Shown: positions 2 through 46,276 of the stretch, in pieces
Position numbering within the stretch: the stretch's first letter is position 1
Layout: every line of letters begins with the position of its first letter
DNA from: Escherichia phage vB_EcoM_112
Sequence record: NC_024125.2
Direction: 5' to 3' (one strand)
Length of the DNA: 64,000 nucleotides
Position numbers and translations under genes: made by a program
Notes under the pieces: generated by a model
Database searches by the model: none
The model's input: the letters and a program-made list of their open reading frames with translations, nothing else
Told to the model about the DNA's origin: nothing

Positions 2-2179
2 TTAGGCCGCAAGGGCCTTCATAGTTTTAGCGATTTGGGAAACTTCATCATCACTTAAAGAGTTGCGATAACTGATGAAGTCGGAAACAATACGGAATTT
101 CTTGGTAAACTCAGCAACCATTTTATCACTGTTTTTTGAAGCATTATTTGATAATACATCAAAAAGATTAGTTACTGTCCAGATGTCATGACCGATGGTA
201 TCTTTTCCACCATTAAAATATACACCGCGCAATGAACTAACTATATTAGCGAGTCGTGTATATTCTTCAGAAACTTCATCTGTACTGAAGTACTTCATCA
301 TAAAATCTAGTTCAGGATACTTGATAATTTTATCAATATATCGTTGAGCTGAACTTGAATAACCTACATACTTATCATAATCTACATCATCAAAAGCATC
401 TACATATAAATCACGCAAAGCTTCAAAAATACATTGGCACTGACCGAGTTCTTTTACCTTTTTCTGTAAAAGCGGACGAATAACATAAAATTCATTAATG
501 CCAATAAGATTAGCCATACGAATCAAAATATTCATAGATGGATGACAAAGAGATGTAGTACCATCCATAGAGAAAATATCAGAACGATGCATATACGCTA
601 CATAACCAGTAATTTCATCTGCTTCTGACGTAAGTGTAAATAGTTCCTCTTTTTCCCAGCGCCCGTCTTTAATTTCAAACTTAAATGCTGTAGCAGCTTT
701 AGGACGAGGAGCTTTACTTTTAACTACCTTTGGAATATAGCTTTTAACTAAAGCTTCAATTTCTGACAAATAATGAATGTTAACTTCATCACTTTCAAAC
801 ATCGCCATAATATCAGGAAGTAAATCAATCTGCGATTCTACTTCTGGGTTAATAAACAGAAGGCGTTCGTTATGATGAATATTTAAAGTGTTATTAAATT
901 CACTATCATCTAACGCATGTGCTAATCCACGGACAATATTAACACGATTTTTAATATTGTCAATAACGATATTAATTTTTGTTGTATTAATACCAAACAG
1001 ACGATAACTTGATGCAACGGCTGAAGTTTCATGACTTTGCTTAATGCGTTTCAGTCGAGGGTCAAGATTTACTTCATACACAACTCCTGCATTGCATAAC
1101 TTACTGTCAGGTTCAAACATGCTTTGCATCTTTTTATATGACAGATTTTTAGTCGTGAATTTGACTGAATTGCTAATCATATAATCTCGAGCAGAATACC
1201 CCATCTTCATCAATTCACGATATGTGTGACGAGGAGATGTAGATTCTTTAAATCGTTTTACATCTTCATTAAATGCTTTCTCACTGAGTTCTTTAACTCG
1301 TTCAATGATATTTTTACGAGTGCGATCATCTAGTGAAAGAGCCTCACGAGATGGAGCAATATCAAGTGAACCCATTGGAAACTTAATGTAATTCACTTCA
1401 TTGCGGATGCTTAACCAGTTACGGTCTCTAATAACACCATCGATAGGATAAACAATACCGCCATAGATAGCATACAATCCGCCACGATCAGGCCAGTATC
1501 TTTCTGGATTTACACCGTAATAATCATCAAAATCCGGAAAATAATCAATTTCGCGGTCAAGACCATTAATGATAGCCAAATCTTTGAATGGTCGCATGAT
1601 ATAAGAAACTTCATAAGCAAAGTTTCTAAAGTCTTTTTCTTCAACTGGAACTACGATTTCAATACCAGTTTTATCATCTGGACCCATTTCTTTTACGAAT
1701 GTAGGTTTAATCTGTGGACCATCACCATCCATGTAAGCTACATAACCACGAATTTCGCCTTTATGATACGAAGTAATACTAAATGTATCAGTATAACTAA
1801 ACGGAGATTTAGAACCTAAACCAAATCCGCCAATGAAATCGTTAGATTCAGCCTTAGATGAACTGAAGTATGAATTATACAGACCAGGAGAATTATCATC
1901 ACCCTGAATATCAAAATCACTCATACCCGGACCAAAATCTCGACAAACAAATCGCGGATCTAATCGTCCTGGAACTTGTATGATAAATTTTTCAGGATTT
2001 CCATTGAGAGCATGGGCATCAATCATATTAGTAATCAATTCACGGACTACTGCGCGAATCTTGTTTGTATACAAATCAGACGACAGAATTTTAAATACTT
2101 TAGGAGATGCTGTGATGCTAAATGCTTTCGATTTAGAACCATTACCAAGAATTGTTTCTTTTTCAGTGGTGATAATCAT
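2..2179 (-). CDS. rIIA: rIIA membrane-associated protein (rapid-lysis/Rex exclusion locus), 725 aa
   Basis: 725-aa ORF, N-terminus [14 protein letters not shown] and length as I recall for T4 rIIA; ATG at 2177-2179, TAA at 2-4. Confidence 0.9.
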
Positions 2180-2189
2180 AATTTCCTCA

Positions 2190-2393
2190 TTAATTCATAT
2201 TACGCTTAATAACTTCAGCAACTTCTAGTAGTTCATCTTTAGTTGCGGTGTCGGATTGAATTTTATCTCTAATATCTTTAAAGCGGTTTTTAAATTCTTC
2301 GGCTTCTCCCATATCGAAAAAGCGTTGAATGATTCTATATTCTCGATGAACTGCTTTATCAAAAAGTTCTAAATTTACTTTATATGATTTCAT
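2190..2393 (-). CDS. hypothetical 67-aa protein (position of T4 rIIA.1)
   Basis: ORF immediately upstream of rIIA, ATG verified at 2391-2393; early promoter just upstream. Confidence 0.6.
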
Positions 2394-2447
2394 TTCAATA
2401 TCCTCATTTGCCCAATTAATTATACCACATCCTTGTGGTAAAGTAAA

Positions 2448-2980
2448 CTACTGGCTCATCCATTCTTTACGAAGGTCAGCGTTATCTCCCATGAGCATTT
2501 CAAAAAGCTCTTTCCAGTTCTCAGGAAGTTTAACAACATCATATACTGGATTTTGAATCATCTCACGATATTCAGATTTTTCCAAAGAGCCAAGTCCTTT
2601 AATATAACGGATGCTATGTTTAGGTAGAGCATCTTTGGCACTCTCATATTCAGCGACTGTATAAAACCATTCTTGTTTTTTACCGACCTGAGCGATGATT
2701 ACAGGAGTTTTGACAAAACGAATTCGTCCTTGCTCAAACAATTCTGGCCAATTACTAAAAAATCCGAGCAGAGAAGGATAAATAGAACCTAATCCAATAA
2801 TCTCTTAATTATGAGGTATTTCTATAGATAGCCCGAAGGCTATCCATCGTGATCTGCGTCTGTCATAATAGCGACATTCGCATAGTTCATTGAAGAGGAT
2901 TTAATAGAACGACGAACATTGTTCTGCAATTTATATTTTTTCATATCAACGCTAGAAGAATCAATTTTTACAAATTTCAT
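2448..2980 (-). CDS. 60: DNA topoisomerase II subunit gp60, translated by programmed bypass of a 50-nt coding gap; segments 2843..2980 and 2448..2792
   Basis: 46 codons MKFVKIDSS...DADHDG end at take-off GGA (2843-2845) followed by UAG (2840-2842); reading resumes after landing GGA (2793-2795) as LGSIYPSLLGFF...; 46+114=160 aa. Confidence 0.9.
2793..2845 (-). other. gene 60 translational bypass element: take-off GGA, UAG stop, CUUCGG hairpin (2827-2844), 50-nt untranslated gap, landing GGA
   Basis: Matched GGA codons exactly 50 nt apart; stem GAUAGCC/GGCUAUC with UUCG loop spans the take-off codon; nascent peptide KKYKLQNNVRRSIKSSS precedes it. Confidence 0.85.
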
Positions 2981-3779
2981 TATACACCTCATAGAACTTT
3001 TCATCAGGAATCCAACCGCGTTTAAATTCATTAAATGCTCGGCCGAATAATTTTGAATTCACAGTTATATTATTAACTGATTTCCATTTAGCAACTCCCG
3101 TTCGTTTATAATGATCGGGGTCATATTTCGTGACGTACCATTCATATAAATTTGGTATTAATTTTACAGCCTCTGGATTTGTCGCTGATTTATTATACCA
3201 TGGTTTCGCTTTTTCAAGTTCAGCTGCTTTTGCAGTAGCAGCAACAGTATTTCCAATACCAACTAATTTTTCAGCTTTAATGCGTGGATCATTAACATGA
3301 AGACGAAAAACTTCGCCTTTTTCATTTTTAAAGCATGTCATGCCTTTAATTCCAGGAAGCTTAACACCTTTATTAACACCGCACCATTCCTTTGGGTTAA
3401 ATGATCCTTTAATTAATAAGGCGCATTTACCCGATTTAATACTTCTCATTAAAACTTTATCTTTCATAAAGTTTTTTGACCATTCAGATACTGCTCTTTG
3501 ATGGTAAATTCTAGCAATTTCATATAATTTACTAGAACGTAAATATTTTTCAGTGTTTAACATTCTATTCATCGCATATGCCATTTCACGATTACGATGA
3601 ATTTTATATAGTAGAAAATGTGCTAAAAAGTGTTCACGAAAAGTCAGTTTCACCAAATTTTCTTTATCATCAGAACCTCCCATTGATCTTGGAAGGATAT
3701 GATGAATTTCACCCTTAAATTTAGAAACGCGGGTTTTACCCCGCACTATTAAGTCATTATAGATTTTTTCGTAATTCAC
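2961..3779 (-). CDS. mobA: HNH homing endonuclease MobA, 272 aa as tracked
   Basis: HNH motif HHILPRSMGGSDDKENLVKLTFREHFLAH; sits between gene 39 and gene 60 and overlaps both; first codon is GTG with no in-frame ATG nearby. Confidence 0.75.
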   Translation of the reverse strand: MNYEKIYNDLIVRGKTRVSKFKGEIHHILPRSMGGSDDKENLVKLTFREHFLAHFLLYKIHRNREMAYAMNRMLNTEKYLRSSKLYEIARIYHQRAVSEWSKNFMKDKVLMRSIKSGKCALLIKGSFNPKEWCGVNKGVKLPGIKGMTCFKNEKGEVFRLHVNDPRIKAEKLVGIGNTVAATAKAAELEKAKPWYNKSATNPEAVKLIPNLYEWYVTKYDPDHYKRTGVAKWKSVNNITVNSKLFGRAFNEFKRGWIPDEKFYEVYNEICKN

Positions 3780-5307
3780 CTACTGTTATCCATTTACCAT
3801 TAATCTGTACTTCATCATTTTCATTTACGATAATTGTATCGCCATTTAGTTCGAAAGTAAACCACTCGCCATCTTCTTTTTCTTCAAACGCCTTTTCACC
3901 AAGAACTAGACCAGTGATTGCGCAAATATCAAATAGTTCTTTGTTTTTAAGCATATCGGCATATGACATACCCCAGCTATTAAGAACTTTACCGCGCAAT
4001 GGATAACCACCATGAAGTTCTTTATCACGAACATCAATAAGATATCCGATAGCAGAATCACCCTCAGTCAAGAACAATGTAGTATCAGCATCTTTACCAC
4101 AAAGATTCGCTTTAATATGTTTATGAACCTTAGCTTTAGAAGCCTTTTTAGCTGCTTTAGTTTCTGCTGCCTTTTCCGCCGCCAATTTACGAGCTAGTGC
4201 AGCTTCAATAATCGGCATTAAAATTGCTTCATTATTTAGAATAGCGCGTGAAATCTTTTTAGCATCAAGTTGAATATGACTACGAATTTCGCCAAATGGA
4301 GAAGTCAAACGCTCTTTAGTTTGAGAATCAAATCGCATGTTTTTCATATCACGAACAAACATAACGATAGTCAAACATTCTTTAACCCGTGCTTTAGTTA
4401 CATCAATTTTGAACTTACGTTTGATTTGTGGAATAAGGTCTTCACAAATATCATCCATAACACAGTCAATGTGATGGCCACCATTCTTAGTATGAATGTT
4501 ATTCACATAAGTTAATTGACGAAAACCATCCGGTGAACGACCAACTGCAATAGAACAATTTTCTTGTTCTTGAACGATAGCATGCTCATCATATTGGCGT
4601 GCATATTTCTTAAAATTACCCTGAACCTTTTTACCATTAAAGGTAAATTGAATATCAGGATAAACAACAGCAAGTGTCTGGAGACGATCTAGTGTAATGT
4701 CAAGATAAACTTGGGACAGCTCATTAGTTTCAAATGACATAAAATCAGGAATGAAAGTAACGCGAGTTCCTTTCCATTTTCCAGGAATATCTTCCCATGA
4801 TTTATTTTCCATGCCATTTGAACAACGAACTACAATATTATTTTGACCATCACCAGTTTCACCAACAAACATCACAGAAAAAATGTTAGTTAAACTAGAA
4901 CCAACACCGTTCATACCGCCAGTGACGCGTTCTTTATCATCACCGAAGTTACCACCTGCTTTTGGAATAGTCCATGCAGCAACAGGACCAGGAATTTCTT
5001 CACCAGTAGGTGTTTTAACCATAGCCTGTGGAATACCACGACCGTTATCTTCAACTGTTACCTGATTATTTTTAATAGTAACATTAATTTTATTTGCGAA
5101 TTTAAACTTAGTACGAATACCTTCATCTACTGAGTTATCGATAATTTCATCAATAAGCTTAACAAGACCAGGTACATACTGAACACTTTCCCATTTACCA
5201 AACAGAAAGCGCTCATGCATTTCATTAGCAGAAGAGCCAATATACATGCCGCTACGCTTTTTGATATGTTCAATATCGCTCAGAATTTTAATTTCATTCT
5301 TAATCAT
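3757..5307 (-). CDS. 39: DNA topoisomerase II large (ATPase, GyrB-like) subunit gp39, 516 aa
   Basis: 516 aa from ATG at 5305-5307 (tracked start 5310 is GTG); GHKL ATPase motifs (EIIDNSVDE, GLVKLIDE); synteny. Confidence 0.9.
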   Translation of the reverse strand: MIKNEIKILSDIEHIKKRSGMYIGSSANEMHERFLFGKWESVQYVPGLVKLIDEIIDNSVDEGIRTKFKFANKINVTIKNNQVTVEDNGRGIPQAMVKTPTGEEIPGPVAAWTIPKAGGNFGDDKERVTGGMNGVGSSLTNIFSVMFVGETGDGQNNIVVRCSNGMENKSWEDIPGKWKGTRVTFIPDFMSFETNELSQVYLDITLDRLQTLAVVYPDIQFTFNGKKVQGNFKKYARQYDEHAIVQEQENCSIAVGRSPDGFRQLTYVNNIHTKNGGHHIDCVMDDICEDLIPQIKRKFKIDVTKARVKECLTIVMFVRDMKNMRFDSQTKERLTSPFGEIRSHIQLDAKKISRAILNNEAILMPIIEAALARKLAAEKAAETKAAKKASKAKVHKHIKANLCGKDADTTLFLTEGDSAIGYLIDVRDKELHGGYPLRGKVLNSWGMSYADMLKNKELFDICAITGLVLGEKAFEEKEDGEWFTFELNGDTIIVNENDEVQINGKWITVGELRKNL

Positions 5308-5359
5308 CACTTATCCTCGTTTGGTTTCGGGAATATTATACTCCAATAATCATAAAGCT

Positions 5360-15976: not shown

Positions 15977-16213
15977 TTAACCACCTATTTCTGTAGGCGT
16001 AAACATTGCAGCATTCTTAGTTTTCCAATCAGCTGCATCAGAAACTACAGTAGAATATGCCGCCTTTTCAGAAGGAAAGGTCTGATAATGAGAATCTGCA
16101 ATACGATGCTCGTTAGAATAGATTTCAAACGGAACAGAAACTTCCATACCTTTAACTTCTTTGCCTTCACCCGCTGGATGAGTAAAGGTCTTGATGTTAA
16201 CAAAACCACCCAT
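15977..16213 (-). CDS. soc: small outer capsid protein Soc, 78 aa
   Basis: Core YQTFPSEKAAYSTV as I recall for Soc; late promoter upstream. Confidence 0.8.
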   Translation of the reverse strand: MGGFVNIKTFTHPAGEGKEVKGMEVSVPFEIYSNEHRIADSHYQTFPSEKAAYSTVVSDAADWKTKNAAMFTPTEIGG

Positions 16214-16244
16214 AATAAACTCCTTTATTGTTTAATTACAGGTG

Positions 16245-16252
16245 TATTTATA
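16245..16252 (-). promoter_or_regulatory. T4 late promoter TATAAATA upstream of soc
   Basis: Plus tatttata 16245-16252, about 32 nt before soc ATG with AAGGAG RBS. Confidence 0.6.
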
Positions 16253-16255
16253 TCA

Positions 16256-16774
16256 TCAATAACCTCGGTCTTGACGTGCGAAGTTTTCGGCATTTTTCAG
16301 ATAATAAAGTTTAAAGATTTCTTCAGCCGACATTCCAAGAGCAATAAATTTATTCATGAAAAAGTGAAATTGGTCAATCAGTTCAAATTTAATTTCAAGC
16401 TGATCTTCAGGAGATAAATCTTGAATTTTCTTGGATTGCATTTCAGAATAACGTTTCTTCCAAGGTTTCCATACGGCAGAAGCTTCTTTTTCACCATTAC
16501 TCATACCACCAAGAGAAGTATATAGCTCGCGAGTTTCGTCTGCGATATAATCGTCTTGGTTTCGCAGCCAAGCAAGAACTTCTCCTGCAGTTTCAAGTGA
16601 ATCGGGATGACGATTTGTTTCTGGTTTATCATTAGCCAAACGAATCTGTAAATGCCGCTGCATGTCAAGCATAACCTGTAGTGGGTCAATATTGTGCATA
16701 ATATTCTCAGCATATGCACGATTTGCTTTATCAACACCTTCGATCAAATGAGCACATTCATTAAAGTGAGCCAT
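16256..16774 (-). CDS. 56: dCTP/dUTP pyrophosphatase gp56 (MazG-like), about 172 aa
   Basis: MAHFNECAHLIEG N-terminus from ATG at 16772-16774; EASAVW...ELIDQFHF motifs. Confidence 0.85.
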   Translation of the reverse strand: MAHFNECAHLIEGVDKANRAYAENIMHNIDPLQVMLDMQRHLQIRLANDKPETNRHPDSLETAGEVLAWLRNQDDYIADETRELYTSLGGMSNGEKEASAVWKPWKKRYSEMQSKKIQDLSPEDQLEIKFELIDQFHFFMNKFIALGMSAEEIFKLYYLKNAENFARQDRGY

Positions 16775-41232: not shown

Positions 41233-41556
41233 TTAATCTTCTATGATATCTCTATCATATCCAAGTGAAATGAGAGTTTCTTTGAAGTGTTTAATGTTCT
41301 TTTGTCTAGAATCATTAATGAAAATGACTGGATAACGAATGTTAAGAGATGTGAATCCAGCGCGTTTAGCAAGAGATACAATCAGTGGACGATCATACTC
41401 AATCTTACCGTTATTTGTAAGAACTTTATAGAAAGTAAAAGGAGCATTGAGCTCCTTTAGAAGTTTTGTAACTGATTGACATCCAGGACAACGACCTACT
41501 TCATCTGGAATTCCATAGACTTCAATCTTATTCTTTAAGTTCGAGTTTTGTTCCAC
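41233..41556 (-). CDS. nrdH: glutaredoxin-like NrdH-type redoxin, about 107 aa from GTG start
   Basis: CPGC active-site motif; no in-frame ATG; GTG at 41554-41556 has AAGGAA RBS. Confidence 0.6.
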   Translation of the reverse strand: MEQNSNLKNKIEVYGIPDEVGRCPGCQSVTKLLKELNAPFTFYKVLTNNGKIEYDRPLIVSLAKRAGFTSLNIRYPVIFINDSRQKNIKHFKETLISLGYDRDIIED

Positions 41557-41839
41557 GAGAAATAATTCCTTGGTAAGCCCAATAAGGAGGATTAACAGAA
41601 TCCTCGCCAGAGTTTTCTTCAGGAAAATAAACCTGGATAACAAATCCAGATGCATCAAAGGTAAAATAAACCGTAGGCAGTTCACCTAACAATTCGGCAC
41701 GAGCATTAATTTCTTCGAGATCTCGTTCACGTCCAGCCCAAAAACTAGGATTTAGACTACATTCGTAAAAATAATAGTCATTACCGAACATATCAAAACC
41801 CTTCCAACTCTCTACCACATACCGCTCAAAACTAATCAT
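41528..41839 (-). CDS. hypothetical protein, 103 aa
   Basis: ORF track; 3' end overlaps nrdH start in another frame. Confidence 0.5.
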   Translation of the reverse strand: MISFERYVVESWKGFDMFGNDYYFYECSLNPSFWAGRERDLEEINARAELLGELPTVYFTFDASGFVIQVYFPEENSGEDSVNPPYWAYQGIISRGTKLELKE

Positions 41840-41841
41840 AA

Positions 41842-42057
41842 TTAAGCCTTTTTATCAAGAACAGAATTCAGCTTGTTAGTAATTTTATCCAGACGCTCAT
41901 TGAACTCGCTAGAAGATAAACCCTTTTCTGGAGAAATCAAACTAATCACGAAAAATATAGCAATAAAAGGAATAAGGAAAATAGCTCCAACTGCCATAAA
42001 CAGAAAGAATGTTACAGTTGTAAGAAAATCAGCTAAACCTTTACGAAATTTATACAT
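41842..42057 (-). CDS. small membrane protein, 71 aa
   Basis: Two hydrophobic segments. Confidence 0.5.
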   Translation of the reverse strand: MYKFRKGLADFLTTVTFFLFMAVGAIFLIPFIAIFFVISLISPEKGLSSSEFNERLDKITNKLNSVLDKKA

Positions 42058-42171
42058 ATTTTACCCTTAATTGATTAACCAAGCATTGATAAGCACTAAA
42101 CTATATTGCGAATAAAATTCTGGACCAAAATGAAAATCATATCATTTATAGTATCCATAATGTAATTCAAT

Positions 42172-42642
42172 TTAATCATGTGTCCACCCCTCATCGGTAT
42201 TTGACCAAAGTCGCTGATTATCTGATCCTCGCCACAGCTTTTTAGTCGGAAGATTTTTCTCATACTTCCCATCAATAATAACATCAACATATTTAAGCAT
42301 TTCTAGTTGTTTAATATCTTCAAACTTATATCCTGTCCACAACCAAATGCTTTTATTGGGATAAAGATTTTTAATAGTTTGAACCACAGAGTGAATCACG
42401 TCTCTGTTATCAGGATAAAGAGGGTCTCCTCCAGTTATAGTTAATCCTTCTATATAATCATTATTCAAACATTCAATTAATTGTTCTAATGTTTCACCAG
42501 TGAATGGAATACCATTTCTAGCATTCCATGTTGATTTATTATAACACCCTTCACATTTATGCAAACAACCTGTAACGAAAAGAACGGTCCTGCATCCAGG
42601 GCCATTCACAAAGCAGCACGGATATATTCTGTCATAATTCAT
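42172..42642 (-). CDS. nrdG: anaerobic ribonucleotide reductase activating protein NrdG (radical SAM), 156 aa
   Basis: CxxxCxxC cluster GCLHKCEGC; ATG at 42640-42642. Confidence 0.85.
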   Translation of the reverse strand: MNYDRIYPCCFVNGPGCRTVLFVTGCLHKCEGCYNKSTWNARNGIPFTGETLEQLIECLNNDYIEGLTITGGDPLYPDNRDVIHSVVQTIKNLYPNKSIWLWTGYKFEDIKQLEMLKYVDVIIDGKYEKNLPTKKLWRGSDNQRLWSNTDEGWTHD

Positions 42643-43469
42643 AATAATATCCAATTTTTCCAAGCTTCATCAGTAGAATTACAGCATTTTAGTATAAGAT
42701 GTCTAGAAACTTTTATGGCATTTGAGCACTTTTTAATTGAATCATATTTAATACCGTCAACTGAAACGGTTTTGCTAGTTGGAGAAATTTTTCCATACAT
42801 TGGATTTTTTGAACCAACTTGAAGTCCTTTTAAAGCTTTTGAAAGCTTTTGTCTAGATTCCAATGACATGGGAGAATTCTTTTTACCTTCAATAATTCGC
42901 TTGCGATGAAGTTCGCGTTCTTCTTCACTCAAAGAATTGTAATATTTTTTAACACCGTTTGATATAGATAATTTATCTTTCTCAGACCGCTCTCCAGCTA
43001 ATTTACTTCTAACATCTTTTCGCTTCATAGCTATGCTTACGGCTTTATTTAAATTTGCTTGATGCTCTGGCGTACGTTTATATTTCTTTAAAGCACGTGA
43101 AATAGCTATTTTAGTTTCTTCTGTTCTCTTTTTACCTTTATTTGCTAAACTATTTTTGCGGCGATGTTCAAGTGTCTGTTCATAGGCAGTTCCACCTTTT
43201 CCACCAGGTTTAATATTATATGTATTTTCTTTTAGACAATACTCTTCGGTTACAAGTTCAGCTTCTTTATCATACATTTGTTTTTCATTATCAAAAACAT
43301 GTAAAATTTCTTTATTAAAATTTTTTCTACCATATTTTAATAAAGCGGCACGAATCAATGTTCCTGACCCCATATAACCGTCATTTATGTTATCGGTGCT
43401 ATGCGCACCGATATATTCCTTTGAATTAATTATATTTGTTATTTTATAAATTATATAATACCTATGCAT
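42639..43469 (-). mobile_element. free-standing GIY-YIG homing endonuclease ORF, 276 aa
   Basis: N-terminal YIIYKITN...KEYIGAH motif; basic C-terminal DNA-binding half; overlaps nrdD stop and nrdG start. Confidence 0.75.
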
Positions 43470-45279
43470 GTTTTACTCGTTTTACCATTTCTTTCATTTT
43501 ACCTAAATTCCATGGAACAACGCTAGGAGTTCCAAGATATCCGCATGTTCTTCTTATGGTATTCATCTTTTTAGGATCAGTTTCTCCACAAATAGAACAA
43601 ACAAATCCGTTTTCAGTAGGAGTCATTTCATGGGTACTTCCGCATGTAAAACATTTATCTACTGGCATATTAACACCAAAATAATCTAAATGTTGTGCAG
43701 CATAATCCCATACAGCCTCAAGACCTTTTAAGTTATTTTTCATATCAGGAAGTTCAACATAAGAAATGTGACCACCTGTTGCAATGAAATGATACGGGGC
43801 TTCGCGAGAAATCTTTTCAAACGGAGTAATATTTTCTTCTACTGAAACATGGAAACTGTTAGTATACCAGCCTTTATCAGTAACATCCTTTACACTTCCA
43901 TATTTTTCGGTATCAAGTTTACAGAAGCGATAACACAAGTTTTCAGCAGGAGTAGAATACAAACTAAAAGCAAATCCGGTTCTTTCAGTCCATTGTTTAA
44001 GATGAGTATTCATTTTAGTTAAAATTTCTTGTCCAATATCACGACCGACAAGAATATTCAATTCGTGAATACCAATGTATCCTAGAGACACTGAACTTCT
44101 ACCGTTTTTAAATAACTCAATTATGTCGTCATCAGGTTTAAGACGAACCCCGAATGCACCTTCTTGGTAAAGAATAGGAGCAACAGTTGCTTTAACTCCT
44201 TTTAAGGAACTAATTCTACACATCAAAGCTTCAAAACACAAATCCATTCGCTCATTGAACAATTCGATAAATTTCTGTTCATTGAACTGTGTTCCAATAT
44301 AAGAATCTAATGCGATACGAGGAAGATTCAGTGTTACAACACCAAGATTATTACGTCCATCAAGAATTTCATTACCAGTCGAATCTTTCCATACGCTCAA
44401 GAAACTACGGCAACCCATCGGAGAAACAGGAACAGATGAACCAGTGATAGCTTTATTGTTCTTAGCTGAAATAATATCAGGATACATCCTTTTGCTTGCG
44501 CACTCTAGAGCAAGCTGTTTAATATCATAGTTCGGGTCGTCTTTATAAAGATTAACACCTTCTTCAACGAACATAACAAGCTTAGGGAAAATAGGAGTTA
44601 TCCCATCACGACCAAGACCTTTAATACGATTTTTCAGAATTGCTTTCTGAATCATTCGTTCAGTCCAGTCAGTTCCCGTACCAAATGTAATTGTTACAAA
44701 AGGCGTTTGTCCGTTTGAACTAAAGAGAGTATTTACTTCATATTCATAAGCTTGGAATGCATCGTATACGTCTTTTTCTGTTTTAGACTGGGCATAATTC
44801 AACGCATCAGCGATTTGCCATTTTTCTGCATCCTCAATATGTTTTGCATAGGTGCGTTTAACATAAGGAGAAAGTACTTTATCTACATTCGCAAAAGTCG
44901 TTCCGCCGTATTGGTGAGAAGCAACCTGTGCAGTAATTTGTGCCATAATTGCAGTAGCAACGCCAATTGATTTAGGAGTTTCAATCTGTGCATTACCTAG
45001 CTTAAATCCGTTTTCAAGCATTCCTTTTAAATCTACTAAACAACAATTAGTAAATGGAAGAGCAGGGGAATAATCAATATCGTGGAAATGGATAATTCCG
45101 CTTTCATGCGCTTTCATAATAAAAGACGGGACCATATTTTTGGCAATGTGTTTAGACACAATACCAGCCATAAGGTCCCGTTGAGTTGGAAAAACACGAG
45201 AATCTTTATTAGCATTCTCGTTTAAAAGGTCTTTATTAGTTTTATGAATCAATCCTTCAATTTCTTTTTCAATTGTCAT
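43462..45279 (-). CDS. nrdD: anaerobic ribonucleoside-triphosphate reductase NrdD, 605 aa, uninterrupted
   Basis: C-terminal glycyl-radical and zinc-ribbon region (CFTCGS...CSICG, RRTCGY); single continuous ORF. Confidence 0.9.
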   Translation of the reverse strand: MTIEKEIEGLIHKTNKDLLNENANKDSRVFPTQRDLMAGIVSKHIAKNMVPSFIMKAHESGIIHFHDIDYSPALPFTNCCLVDLKGMLENGFKLGNAQIETPKSIGVATAIMAQITAQVASHQYGGTTFANVDKVLSPYVKRTYAKHIEDAEKWQIADALNYAQSKTEKDVYDAFQAYEYEVNTLFSSNGQTPFVTITFGTGTDWTERMIQKAILKNRIKGLGRDGITPIFPKLVMFVEEGVNLYKDDPNYDIKQLALECASKRMYPDIISAKNNKAITGSSVPVSPMGCRSFLSVWKDSTGNEILDGRNNLGVVTLNLPRIALDSYIGTQFNEQKFIELFNERMDLCFEALMCRISSLKGVKATVAPILYQEGAFGVRLKPDDDIIELFKNGRSSVSLGYIGIHELNILVGRDIGQEILTKMNTHLKQWTERTGFAFSLYSTPAENLCYRFCKLDTEKYGSVKDVTDKGWYTNSFHVSVEENITPFEKISREAPYHFIATGGHISYVELPDMKNNLKGLEAVWDYAAQHLDYFGVNMPVDKCFTCGSTHEMTPTENGFVCSICGETDPKKMNTIRRTCGYLGTPSVVPWNLGKMKEMVKRVKHA

Positions 45280-45749
45280 TTTAAACTCTTTCTAAGCTGC
45301 TTCTTAAATGAAGCTATTAACTGTGTTTTGGTGTCAGATTCATTATATTCAAATCCTCTTTGAAGCATCTCGGCCATCATTTCCTCTTTTCCTAAACGAG
45401 AAAATTCCTTTGATTTATCTCCAACAAAGTTAGGGTGAATATTATTTTGGGTGTAATCGGATTTTAAATAAGTAAGTAAATTTTCTAACCATTCAAGATA
45501 ATCAACACCTTGTCCCTTTAAGCCAGAACGATTAAATTTATGCTTCATTTGACCTTCTGCGGCATTGCATAGATTACAAAGCAATCCACGTACCTTTCCT
45601 GCTTTTGGTCCATTTAATTCATGGTCATGATCAAGGTGATTAGCTTGAACGTCAGGATTTAGTTCTCGTTGGCAAATTAAGCATTTACCATTTTGTGCAT
45701 CATAAAATTTCTGTTTTTCTTCTTTATATAATTTGCCAGTCAATAACAT
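45276..45749 (-). CDS. 49: endonuclease VII (Holliday junction resolvase) gp49, 157 aa
   Basis: Zinc motif CLICQ...CNLCN and HLDHDH; length. Confidence 0.9.
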   Translation of the reverse strand: MLLTGKLYKEEKQKFYDAQNGKCLICQRELNPDVQANHLDHDHELNGPKAGKVRGLLCNLCNAAEGQMKHKFNRSGLKGQGVDYLEWLENLLTYLKSDYTQNNIHPNFVGDKSKEFSRLGKEEMMAEMLQRGFEYNESDTKTQLIASFKKQLRKSLK

Positions 45750-45790
45750 AATAAACCCTTACTTTAAATAGATAAGGGTATTTATTATTT

Positions 45791-46276
45791 TCAAGTATTG
45801 TAAAACATTTGATGCAATCGCTTATATTGCCGAATCTTTTGGTCAGAAAAAGAAATTTGATTTTCAAGCCATTCAATGTATTCTGCGGCAGCTTGCATCA
45901 GGTTACCTTCATAGCCATCGTTATTTTCTTGTGCAGCTAATTTAGCTAATGCGTATGAAATACGTTCACCTTGAAAATCGGCTTTAGGCTTCTGAACAAC
46001 TTGATTAGTTCGCTCTACAACTTCTTCAATTTCGCCATTTTCGACTGATTCAGTATTCCACAAACACCAATACGTAATTGGCTTATCGTAGATGTTAATA
46101 ATCTTTCCGTCGGAAAGTTCAATTTCAATAATTCCAGTATCAGGTTCTATATCATCTTCACATTCTTTTGCAAGTTCACGAACTTTAAAGACAGTACCTG
46201 CACTAAGTTCCGGCCAGTAATTACATAGCCCTGTATCAACACGATTAATTCTAAACCACTTATCTACTGTAATCAT
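45791..46276 (-). CDS. pin: hypothetical protein, 161 aa (position and size as I recall for T4 pin)
   Basis: ATG at 46274-46276 (tracked start is TTG); synteny only. Confidence 0.5.
   Translation of the reverse strand: MITVDKWFRINRVDTGLCNYWPELSAGTVFKVRELAKECEDDIEPDTGIIEIELSDGKIINIYDKPITYWCLWNTESVENGEIEEVVERTNQVVQKPKADFQGERISYALAKLAAQENNDGYEGNLMQAAAEYIEWLENQISFSDQKIRQYKRLHQMFYNT

Follow-up and report, generated by a model that had tools for sequence, protein, structure and literature searches.

SegH, a free-standing GIY-YIG homing endonuclease, reportedly cleaves DNA site-specifically near its own locus and homes in mixed infections. Whether a T-even phage carries segH-type homing endonuclease genes (HEGs), the nrdD intron or segF is one of the classical mobile-element polymorphisms of this group, which have been linked to marker exclusion (PMC2988022; PMC2790892), with co-conversion of up to about 2 kb (PMC2790892). 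T4 carries mobC at the nrdD/nrdG junction, thus segH and mobC represent alternative occupants of one site; the literature likewise places segH between nrdD and nrdG in place of T4 mobC. The T4 mobC gene shares locus and orientation with segH, is also tied to its neighbors by overlapping codons, and its activity is listed as not determined (PMC2988022). Yet, in contrast to the GIY-YIG gene segH, mobC belongs to the unrelated HNH family (Pfam PF01844); its first codons duplicate the nrdG N-terminus (MNYDRIY), and the nrdD tail next to it is of the standard form. In turn, T4 SegF (located between 56 and soc) and SegG are free-standing Seg endonucleases, i.e., the same kind of element with the same expected genetic consequence as SegH, encoded like it by promoter-less cassettes that overlap the upstream ORF, although their locus and target differ.

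Here, we analyzed a 64,000-nt stretch of the genome of Escherichia phage vB_EcoM_112 (NC_024125.2), referred to as the window, in which all coordinates are given; all features described below lie on the minus strand. Gene 49 (45276..45749), encoding endonuclease VII (Pfam Endonuclease_7 and Endonuc-dimeris), is the upstream neighbor that fixes the synteny. It is followed by nrdD (43462..45279) for the 605-aa large subunit of the anaerobic (class III) ribonucleotide reductase (Pfam NRDD and Gly_radical), an ORF of 276 codons (42639..43469) and nrdG (42172..42642) for the activase of the class III reductase (156 aa from ATG; Pfam Fer4_12, E 1e-48, and Radical_SAM). The first-pass annotation had described the middle ORF as a 276-aa GIY-YIG gene that shares 8 nt with the end of nrdD and 4 nt with the start of nrdG, with which sequence and coordinates agree. 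The nrdD stop TAG lies inside the 8-nt overlap with the ATG of the ORF (ATGCATAG; context AAA C[ATG CAT AG]G TAT), while the TGA of the ORF and the ATG of nrdG share 4 nt (context TTA TT[ATGA]AT TAT).

Judged by its sequence, the ORF is segH, already named and characterized in T4-related phages (RB3, LZ2, T6), so that the earlier observation was correct but ordinary. The product (exact protein YP_009030685.1 of vB_EcoM_112) is identical to RB3 SegH (ABI48949.1; GenBank AY262138.2; Sandegren, Nord & Sjoberg 2005, NAR 33:6203) in 275 of 276 aa, the sole difference being R262C, and it matches the homing endonuclease family PHROG 314 (E 1e-59). GenBank annotation places segH between nrdD and nrdG in RB3 and LZ2, and names it also in T6 and PP01. 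In RB3, LZ2, and T6 (AY262138.2, AY262139.2, MH550421.1) the same 276-aa gene occupies the same place, overlapping its neighbors by 8 nt and 4 nt as in the window, and a recoded nrdD tail is common to these phages and the window phage; T6 SegH is identical to that of the window in 270 of 276 aa. Three points had been missed before: the ORF is segH, the T4 junction is occupied by mobC, and the cassette reaches into recoded ends of nrdD and nrdG. We consider it highly probable (about 0.9), from sequence and by analogy, that this segH is an intact selfish free-standing HEG at the Tequatrovirus nrdD/nrdG junction, homing with localized marker exclusion.

The protein has an I-TevI-like build, with an N-terminal GIY-YIG nuclease, a linker, a NUMOD3 motif and, at the C-terminus, a predicted DNA-binding module. 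The catalytic domain (aa 1–93; 43191..43469), supported by Pfam, alignment and modeling, carries Y8 (GIY; here the motif reads IIY), Y19-I20-G21 (YIG), E69, and N85, all of which are invariant among 38 homologs. The motif residues are intact, i.e., free of the inactivating substitutions that the first-pass annotation had named as the finding that would speak against its view. The N-terminal 100 aa match PF19835 (SegE_GIY-YIG) at 31.0 bits (cut-off 25) and PF01541 at E 0.011, while the whole protein reaches only 20.8 bits with Pfam GIY-YIG, below the cut-off of 25, the isolated N-terminal domain alone passing. Direct phmmer comparison of SegH with PDB sequences gave chance matches only, whereas the family profile reached I-TevI, matching solely its catalytic domain (1mk0/1ln0). 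In the family-profile alignment the motif residues of SegH align with those of I-TevI, one residue off at the Glu; the catalytic Arg27 of I-TevI sits in an I-TevI insertion relative to the Seg profile, with no SegH equivalent aligned. The AF2 model of aa 1–93 (pLDDT 95–98) shows a beta-beta-alpha-beta-alpha topology, with the three-stranded sheet and flanking helices of the GIY-YIG fold, and the best Foldseek matches are again 1mk0 and 1ln0 (probability 1.00, TM (target) 0.62). Downstream, a NUMOD3 DNA-binding motif was recognized at aa 200–228 (42786..42872; Pfam E 3e-8, 33.8 bits, cut-off 20.4), followed by a strand-strand-helix-helix-helix module at aa 235–275 (42645..42767; AF2 and Foldseek), predicted to bind DNA, which matches the I-TevI DNA-binding domain 1i3j (Foldseek probability 0.80). 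SegH thus shares its catalytic fold and modular build with I-TevI of the T4 td intron, and is 30% identical over 128 aa to I-TevII of the T4 nrdD intron. However, the two latter proteins are intron-encoded, whereas SegH is free-standing and falls into the Seg sub-family, whose motif is YIGxH...DGYxGSG.

The N-terminal residues also bear on the choice of the start codon. Several genome records annotate a 244-aa protein from Met33, with members of this cluster in RB5, ACG-C40, T6 (AP018814), fPS-2, HY03, and LH2; if this were the true product, it would have neither the GIY nor the YIG motif and so could not act as a nuclease. We regard this as extremely improbable, as residues 1–32 hold the family-invariant Y8, Y19, G21, T25, D30, and Y32 and form strands one and two of the GIY-YIG sheet in the model (pLDDT 95–98). 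Furthermore, the 276-aa start is used by the original SegH deposit and by T6 MH550421, and lies where stop and start codons overlap, as they typically do for the free-standing endonucleases of T4 (PMC2988022). The ORF is therefore best named segH with the 276-aa start, given that several public genomes contain the truncated 244-aa version or mislabel the gene as segD; beyond correct annotation, the identification is of little importance.

It could also be argued that segH of the window is a decaying or inactive remnant, kept by linkage or by the dependence of nrdG translation on it, in which, for example, R262C weakens DNA binding. The Cys262 of the window allele lies in the C-terminal domain and is absent from RB3, T6, and KAW3E185, all of which have Arg at this position; pN/pS between segH alleles amounts to 0.13–0.5 versus 0.03 for nrdD, and the life cycle of homing endonucleases predicts decay after fixation. 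Still, the ORF retains its full length and every invariant position of the family, its catalytic domain matches that of RB3 SegH residue for residue, and only 2 of 831 nt differ between the two genes, which makes a remnant very unlikely.

The cassette comprises the segH ORF, a recoded 3′ end of nrdD and a variant 5′ end of nrdG. The nrdD part, behind the glycyl-radical motif RRTCGYLG, takes up the final 22 codons (43462..43539) and reads TPSVVPWNLGKMKEMVKRVKHA, the standard form being NPNERGFNLGKNKEIMHRVKHQ. In its last 78 nt, nrdD differs at 31 positions from T2, RB68, and AndreasVesalius and at none from T6, and homology with T4 stops inside this tail, at 43526. An 81-nt nrdD tail query found matches in only 79 phage records, all of at least 95% identity, and segH is present in every recoded-tail record cross-checked among the matches listed. 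Descent of the tail from the lineage that carries distant SegH-like genes (PF-CE2, KLB3) was rejected, since its match to them (38/78 nt) does not exceed that of the T2 tail (40/78). At the other side, nrdG starts with MNYDRIYPCCFVNGPGCRTV in place of MNYDRFYPCDFVNGPGCRVV (42583..42642); its first 60 nt differ at 10–11 positions from the HEG-less T2 and RB68, and at 1–3 from AndreasVesalius and T6. This variant nrdG end is at least 90% identical in 93 records, close to the sum of 71 records with segH and 22 with a 279-aa HNH gene (HNH-279), and is also present in the HEG-less phage U5. The tight linkage of segH to the recoded NrdD C-terminus offers a handle for mapping target and immunity determinants.

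Synonymous divergence of segH is 0.006–0.05, while that of the adjacent nrdD is 0.106 (window versus T6), and segH alleles are ~6-fold less diverged than nrdD, as would be expected after recent homing. From ~320 nt upstream to ~240 nt downstream of segH there is little divergence from T6, and a nearly identical segH was detected in a record classified as Mosigvirus. Going by the behavior of Seg endonucleases and by what was reportedly described in 2005, in a mixed infection SegH would cut the genome of a segH-less phage near the nrdD/nrdG junction. The break would be repaired by recombination from the segH genome, and the repair would carry segH into the recipient along with the sequences beside it (the recoded tail of nrdD and markers close by in nrdD and nrdG), amounting to localized marker exclusion.

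Across phages, occupancy of the junction is patchy. We found segH in ~70 of roughly 660–840 records matching the junction, the T4-type HNH gene mobC in ~32 and a third, unrelated HNH gene, which encodes 279 aa and is present in AndreasVesalius, in ~22; these counts come from a redundant phage collection containing both GenBank and RefSeq copies. Most junction records have no occupant, and nrdD and nrdG then overlap each other by ATGA, as seen in T2 and RB68. In a Pseudotevenvirus and a Slopekvirus, nrdD is immediately followed by a SegH-like gene (46–48% identity), and this position beside nrdD in such distant phages suggests a conserved site preference. Taken jointly, these data allow the tentative proposal, possible but doubtful in our view, that three or more unrelated endonuclease genes (among them segH, mobC, and the 279-aa HNH gene) replace one another at the junction as at a hot spot, each leaving behind its own recoded flank. 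The rewrite of the last 22 NrdD codons may then lower self-cleavage and mark the SegH target, and the nrdG variant common to segH phages, HNH-279 phages and the empty U5 may be a footprint of earlier occupancy. SegH is said to cut its own DNA as well, which argues against full immunity. This proposal may already be covered by the work of Sandegren et al. 2005.

As for expression, segH seems to lack signals of its own, with no obvious promoter and no strong Shine-Dalgarno sequence. Neither the late promoter TATAAATA in the nrdD-segH-nrdG locus nor a sense-strand terminator in the segH locus was detected, and the only good sigma-70-like site (42565..42538) is located inside nrdG. The GC content of segH (0.29–0.34) is not clearly different from its surroundings. 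We infer that translation of segH would depend on re-initiation from nrdD and yield little protein, and that nrdG would in turn be re-initiated from segH, imitating the nrdD-ATGA-nrdG coupling of empty genomes.

The window phage is one more phage with segH, not mobC, at the nrdD/nrdG junction, and with both the nrdD intron and the segF sites empty. Its nrdD had been reported as a single 605-aa ORF without the T4-type group I intron, and Rfam, blastn against T4 and the alignment of relatives concur. NrdD spans the whole Pfam NRDD model (1–562/562; E 1e-171), and the 1818-nt gene has the same length as, and aligns without gaps to, the intron-less nrdD of T2, RB68, and T6. No Rfam family reached its gathering score anywhere in the window, and nothing appeared at E<=1 within 42000..46000, so there is no group I core at nrdD; the same search run on T4 nrdD as a positive control returned Intron_gpI at 105 bits. 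The blastn alignment with T4 breaks at window position 44744/44741, where T4 carries ~1.03 kb extra and the window is continuous. This marks the empty site of the T4 nrdD group I (I-TevII) intron (44741..44744), around which the window has the T2-type intron-less allele, with 0–2 mismatches per 60 nt versus T2. A cryptic intron, which the first-pass annotation had considered as a counter-case, is ruled out by the Rfam result, the continuity at the T4 intron site and the gap-free alignment. In contrast, the segH phages EC128, FL23, and CE1 possess the nrdD intron and segH together.

Also at the second locus the earlier statement holds, as there is no endonuclease ORF between soc and gene 56. 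The gene 56 for dCTPase (16256..16774; weak dUTPase_2 match, with the matching records stating dCTP pyrophosphatase) and the soc gene for the 78-aa small outer capsid protein (15977..16213; Pfam Soc, E 8e-20) are separated by a spacer of only 42 nt (16214..16255), which contains the late promoter TATAAATA at 16245..16252, whereas T4 has the 675-nt segF in this place. A Seg-family HMM run on all six frames of the window matched segH alone, and no segF. The link that had been drawn from such polymorphisms to exclusion in mixed infections is backed by reviews (PMC2988022; PMC2790892). In the intron-less nrdD and at the segF-less 56/soc spacer, two other homing elements are missing from their sites, and the window phage would act as the recipient for the nrdD intron and segF in crosses with T4. 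The presence of segH and the absence of both other elements thus predict which way localized marker exclusion would go when the phage is crossed with T4 or T2.

The window starts at rIIA and derives from a T4-like phage (Tequatrovirus) whose closest records in the phage collection share about 94–98% identity with it; the genes described below are all encoded on the minus strand. According to the ORF list, gene 49 (endonuclease VII by Pfam; 45276..45749) is followed by nrdD (43462..45279), segH (42639..43469) and nrdG (42172..42642, counted from ATG; Pfam Fer4_12 and Radical_SAM). As proposed in the first-pass annotation, nrdD is one continuous ORF of 605 aa that covers the Pfam NrdD model in full (positions 1–562 of 562, E = 1e-171), and both overlaps can be read directly in the sequence: the start of the 276-aa segH ORF overlaps the nrdD stop by 8 nt (ATGCATAG) and the nrdG start overlaps the segH stop by 4 nt (ATGA). 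The best sigma-70-like site of the locus (42538..42565, minus strand; TTTGCA-16-TG-TATAAT, 10/12) is located within the nrdG coding region and might serve as a promoter for the downstream genes 55.9, 55.8 and nrdH.

The 1818-nt nrdD gene was also thought to be free of a T4-type group I intron, which we confirmed. No Rfam family matched the whole 64-kb window at the gathering score, nor was there a match in 42000..46000 at E ≤ 1, while an identical search of the T4 sequence detected Intron_gpI within nrdD at 105 bits. In the blastn comparison with T4 the window is continuous through the T4 intron position (44741..44744), and T4 has about 1.03 kb extra there, namely the intron carrying I-TevII. 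The gene aligns gap-free with the intron-less nrdD of T2, RB68 and T6. A cryptic nrdD intron is thus ruled out by the Rfam result, the blastn continuity and the alignment at intron-less length. The surroundings of the insertion site represent the T2-type allele (0–2 mismatches per 60 nt), and by inference the nrdD of the window would be a recipient of the T4 intron.

The ORF downstream of nrdD has been described before, under the name segH, and the phage that carries it has likewise been sequenced previously. By tblastn it shows 99.6% identity to record AY262138.2 ("Bacteriophage RB3 NrdD, SegH, NrdG"), where its counterpart is annotated as SegH, homing endonuclease; R262C is the sole difference from the RB3 protein, and an identical protein is deposited for Escherichia phage vB_EcoM_112 (YP_009030685.1). 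The name segH is likewise used in the T6 (MH550421) and PP01 annotations, and a preprint reports that, where T4 has mobC between nrdD and nrdG, related genomes have segH, a GIY-YIG gene, instead. Several RB genomes (RB3–RB10 records) wrongly name the gene segD. A 244-aa product without GIY-YIG motifs is annotated in RB5, ACG-C40, T6 AP018814, fPS-2 and HY03; the 276-aa start is to be preferred, because starting at Met33 removes both the GIY and the YIG motif.

The assignment to GIY-YIG endonucleases holds at the level of both sequence and fold. In Pfam searches the full-length protein matches NUMOD3 (33.8 bits) and, below threshold, SegE_GIY-YIG; its N-terminal 100 aa alone reach 31 bits with SegE_GIY-YIG, above the threshold of 25. 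SegH also matches PHROG 314 "homing endonuclease" (1e-59), and a SegH-family profile retrieved only the I-TevI catalytic domain from PDB (1mk0, 1ln0; E 0.003–0.009). The AlphaFold model displays the beta-beta-alpha-beta-alpha order over aa 1–93 (pLDDT 95–98) and resembles both domains of I-TevI, with the catalytic domain structures 1mk0 and 1ln0 as top matches (prob 1.00, TM 0.62) and the DNA-binding domain 1i3j next (prob 0.80). As for inactivating substitutions, Y8, Y19, G21, E69 and N85, invariant in the alignment of 38 homologues, are all retained; no counterpart of I-TevI Arg27 could be assigned from the family-profile alignment. The segH mRNA contains a perfect 9-bp stem with a 5-nt loop (43391..43413, minus strand; UAUCGGUGC-GCAUA-GCACCGAUA) that spans the YIG-motif codons, its 141-nt context folding at z = -2.4. 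Unlike the terminators within mobE and segF, it is not an obvious terminator structure, since no sense-strand U-tract follows.

Alignment with T4 and relatives over nrdG-nrdD revealed that the junction occupant differs among phages, which bears out the presumed presence/absence polymorphism. A 1620-nt junction query matched 836 records of the phage collection, whose redundancy makes the following counts approximate. We found segH present across the junction in 68 records (SegH at ≥90% aa identity is found in 71), T4-type mobC (≥95% aa identity) in 32, and a third gene, a 279-aa HNH/NUMOD ORF of AndreasVesalius and TadeuszReichstein, in 22 (≥95%) plus 10 at 80–90%, Klebsiella phages included. 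Most remaining records, among them T2 and RB68, have an empty junction with a span of about 795 nt, in which the nrdD stop and nrdG start share ATGA. Both HNH genes, T4 mobC (2907..3539 of the T4 locus) and that of AndreasVesalius (1888..2727 of its locus), open with a duplicated nrdG N-terminus (MNYDRIY and MNYDRFYPCDFVN, respectively) and therefore entered within the nrdG 5' end, whereas segH is placed at the nrdD stop. In AndreasVesalius the HNH-fused nrdG copy is of the type found in phages without a junction endonuclease gene, while the downstream functional nrdG is of the variant type.

The segH cassette is larger than the ORF, as the nrdD tail and nrdG head are linked to it. Compared with phages lacking a junction endonuclease gene, the nrdD body differs by 0–5 nt per 60 and the last 78 nt at 31 positions, so that NrdD beyond RRTCGYLG ends with TPSVVPWNLGKMKEMVKRVKHA in place of NPNERGFNLGKNKEIMHRVKHQ; the same 78 nt show 0 differences from T6. 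This recoded tail matches only 79 records, every one at ≥95% identity, and segH was present in all those displayed and cross-checked. The first 60 nt of nrdG carry 10–11 differences from T2 and RB68 (IYPCC..RTV vs FYPCD..RVV). This variant 5' end is common to the phages with the 279-aa HNH gene (1 difference) and occurs in 93 records, near 71 plus 22. Phage U5 (AY262145.2; 330..480 of its locus) has an empty junction and a standard nrdD tail, yet a variant nrdG 5' end, which could mean that U5 has lost an endonuclease gene or is a recombinant. The recoded flanks and the multiple occupants are the sole points perhaps worth a closer look, and they may already be covered by Sandegren et al. (2005).

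Several patterns point to mobility of segH. Synonymous divergence is 0.006–0.05 among segH alleles and 0.106 for nrdD (window vs T6). Between about 320 nt upstream and about 240 nt downstream of segH the window differs little from T6, and outside these limits it differs more; the stretch looks like a shared co-conversion tract. One Mosigvirus-classified record contains a near-identical segH together with the same nrdD tail, and genes of 46–48% identity lie directly downstream of nrdD in one Pseudotevenvirus and one Slopekvirus, a position suggesting that the site preference of the segH lineage is tied to the conserved nrdD 3' end. Although they belong to different genera, Enterobacter phage PF-CE2 (Pseudotevenvirus) and Klebsiella phage KLB3 (Slopekvirus) encode 283-aa SegH-like proteins with a difference at only 1 of 283 positions (V/A, position 142); in both loci an inverted repeat (TTAGCGCC...GGCGCTAA; 2405..2459 in each) stops immediately upstream of the start codon and might block access to the ribosome-binding site.

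The observation made in the first-pass annotation and its mobile-element interpretation proved right. The analysis shows the identity, architecture, intactness and site of segH, the alternative states of the junction and the linkage of the flanks; the mode of expression and spread is drawn from the Seg/I-Tev literature. Neither a promoter of its own nor a strong Shine-Dalgarno sequence was found for segH at the locus. By analogy with that literature, low-level SegH would be produced by ribosomes that re-initiate on the nrdD transcript at the AUG in the overlap. During mixed infection it would cut segH-less genomes near the junction, and recombinational repair would then copy segH with its flanks, leading to localised marker exclusion.

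The absence of an endonuclease ORF between soc and gene 56 was verified as well: a spacer of 42 nt with a late-promoter TATAAATA is all that lies between gene 56 (16256..16774) and soc (15977..16213; Pfam Soc, E = 8e-20), whereas T4 has the 675-nt segF there. When run on all six frames of the window, a Seg-family HMM picked out no Seg-like ORF other than segH. The window also carries a T4-type split topoisomerase (2448..5310, minus strand), composed of gene 39 (517 aa; 3757..5310), a MobA-like HNH ORF with a GTG start (272 aa; 2961..3779; phmmer vs T4 MobC, 2e-17) and a distal gene 60 ORF (2448..2741), all on the minus strand; from this layout a 50-nt translational bypass is expected in 2742..2960. 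Another presence/absence polymorphism is a 103-aa ORF between nrdH and 55.8 (41528..41839, minus strand), which has no DNA homology to T4; the annotations of RB68 and AndreasVesalius include ORFs of equal length at the equivalent position.
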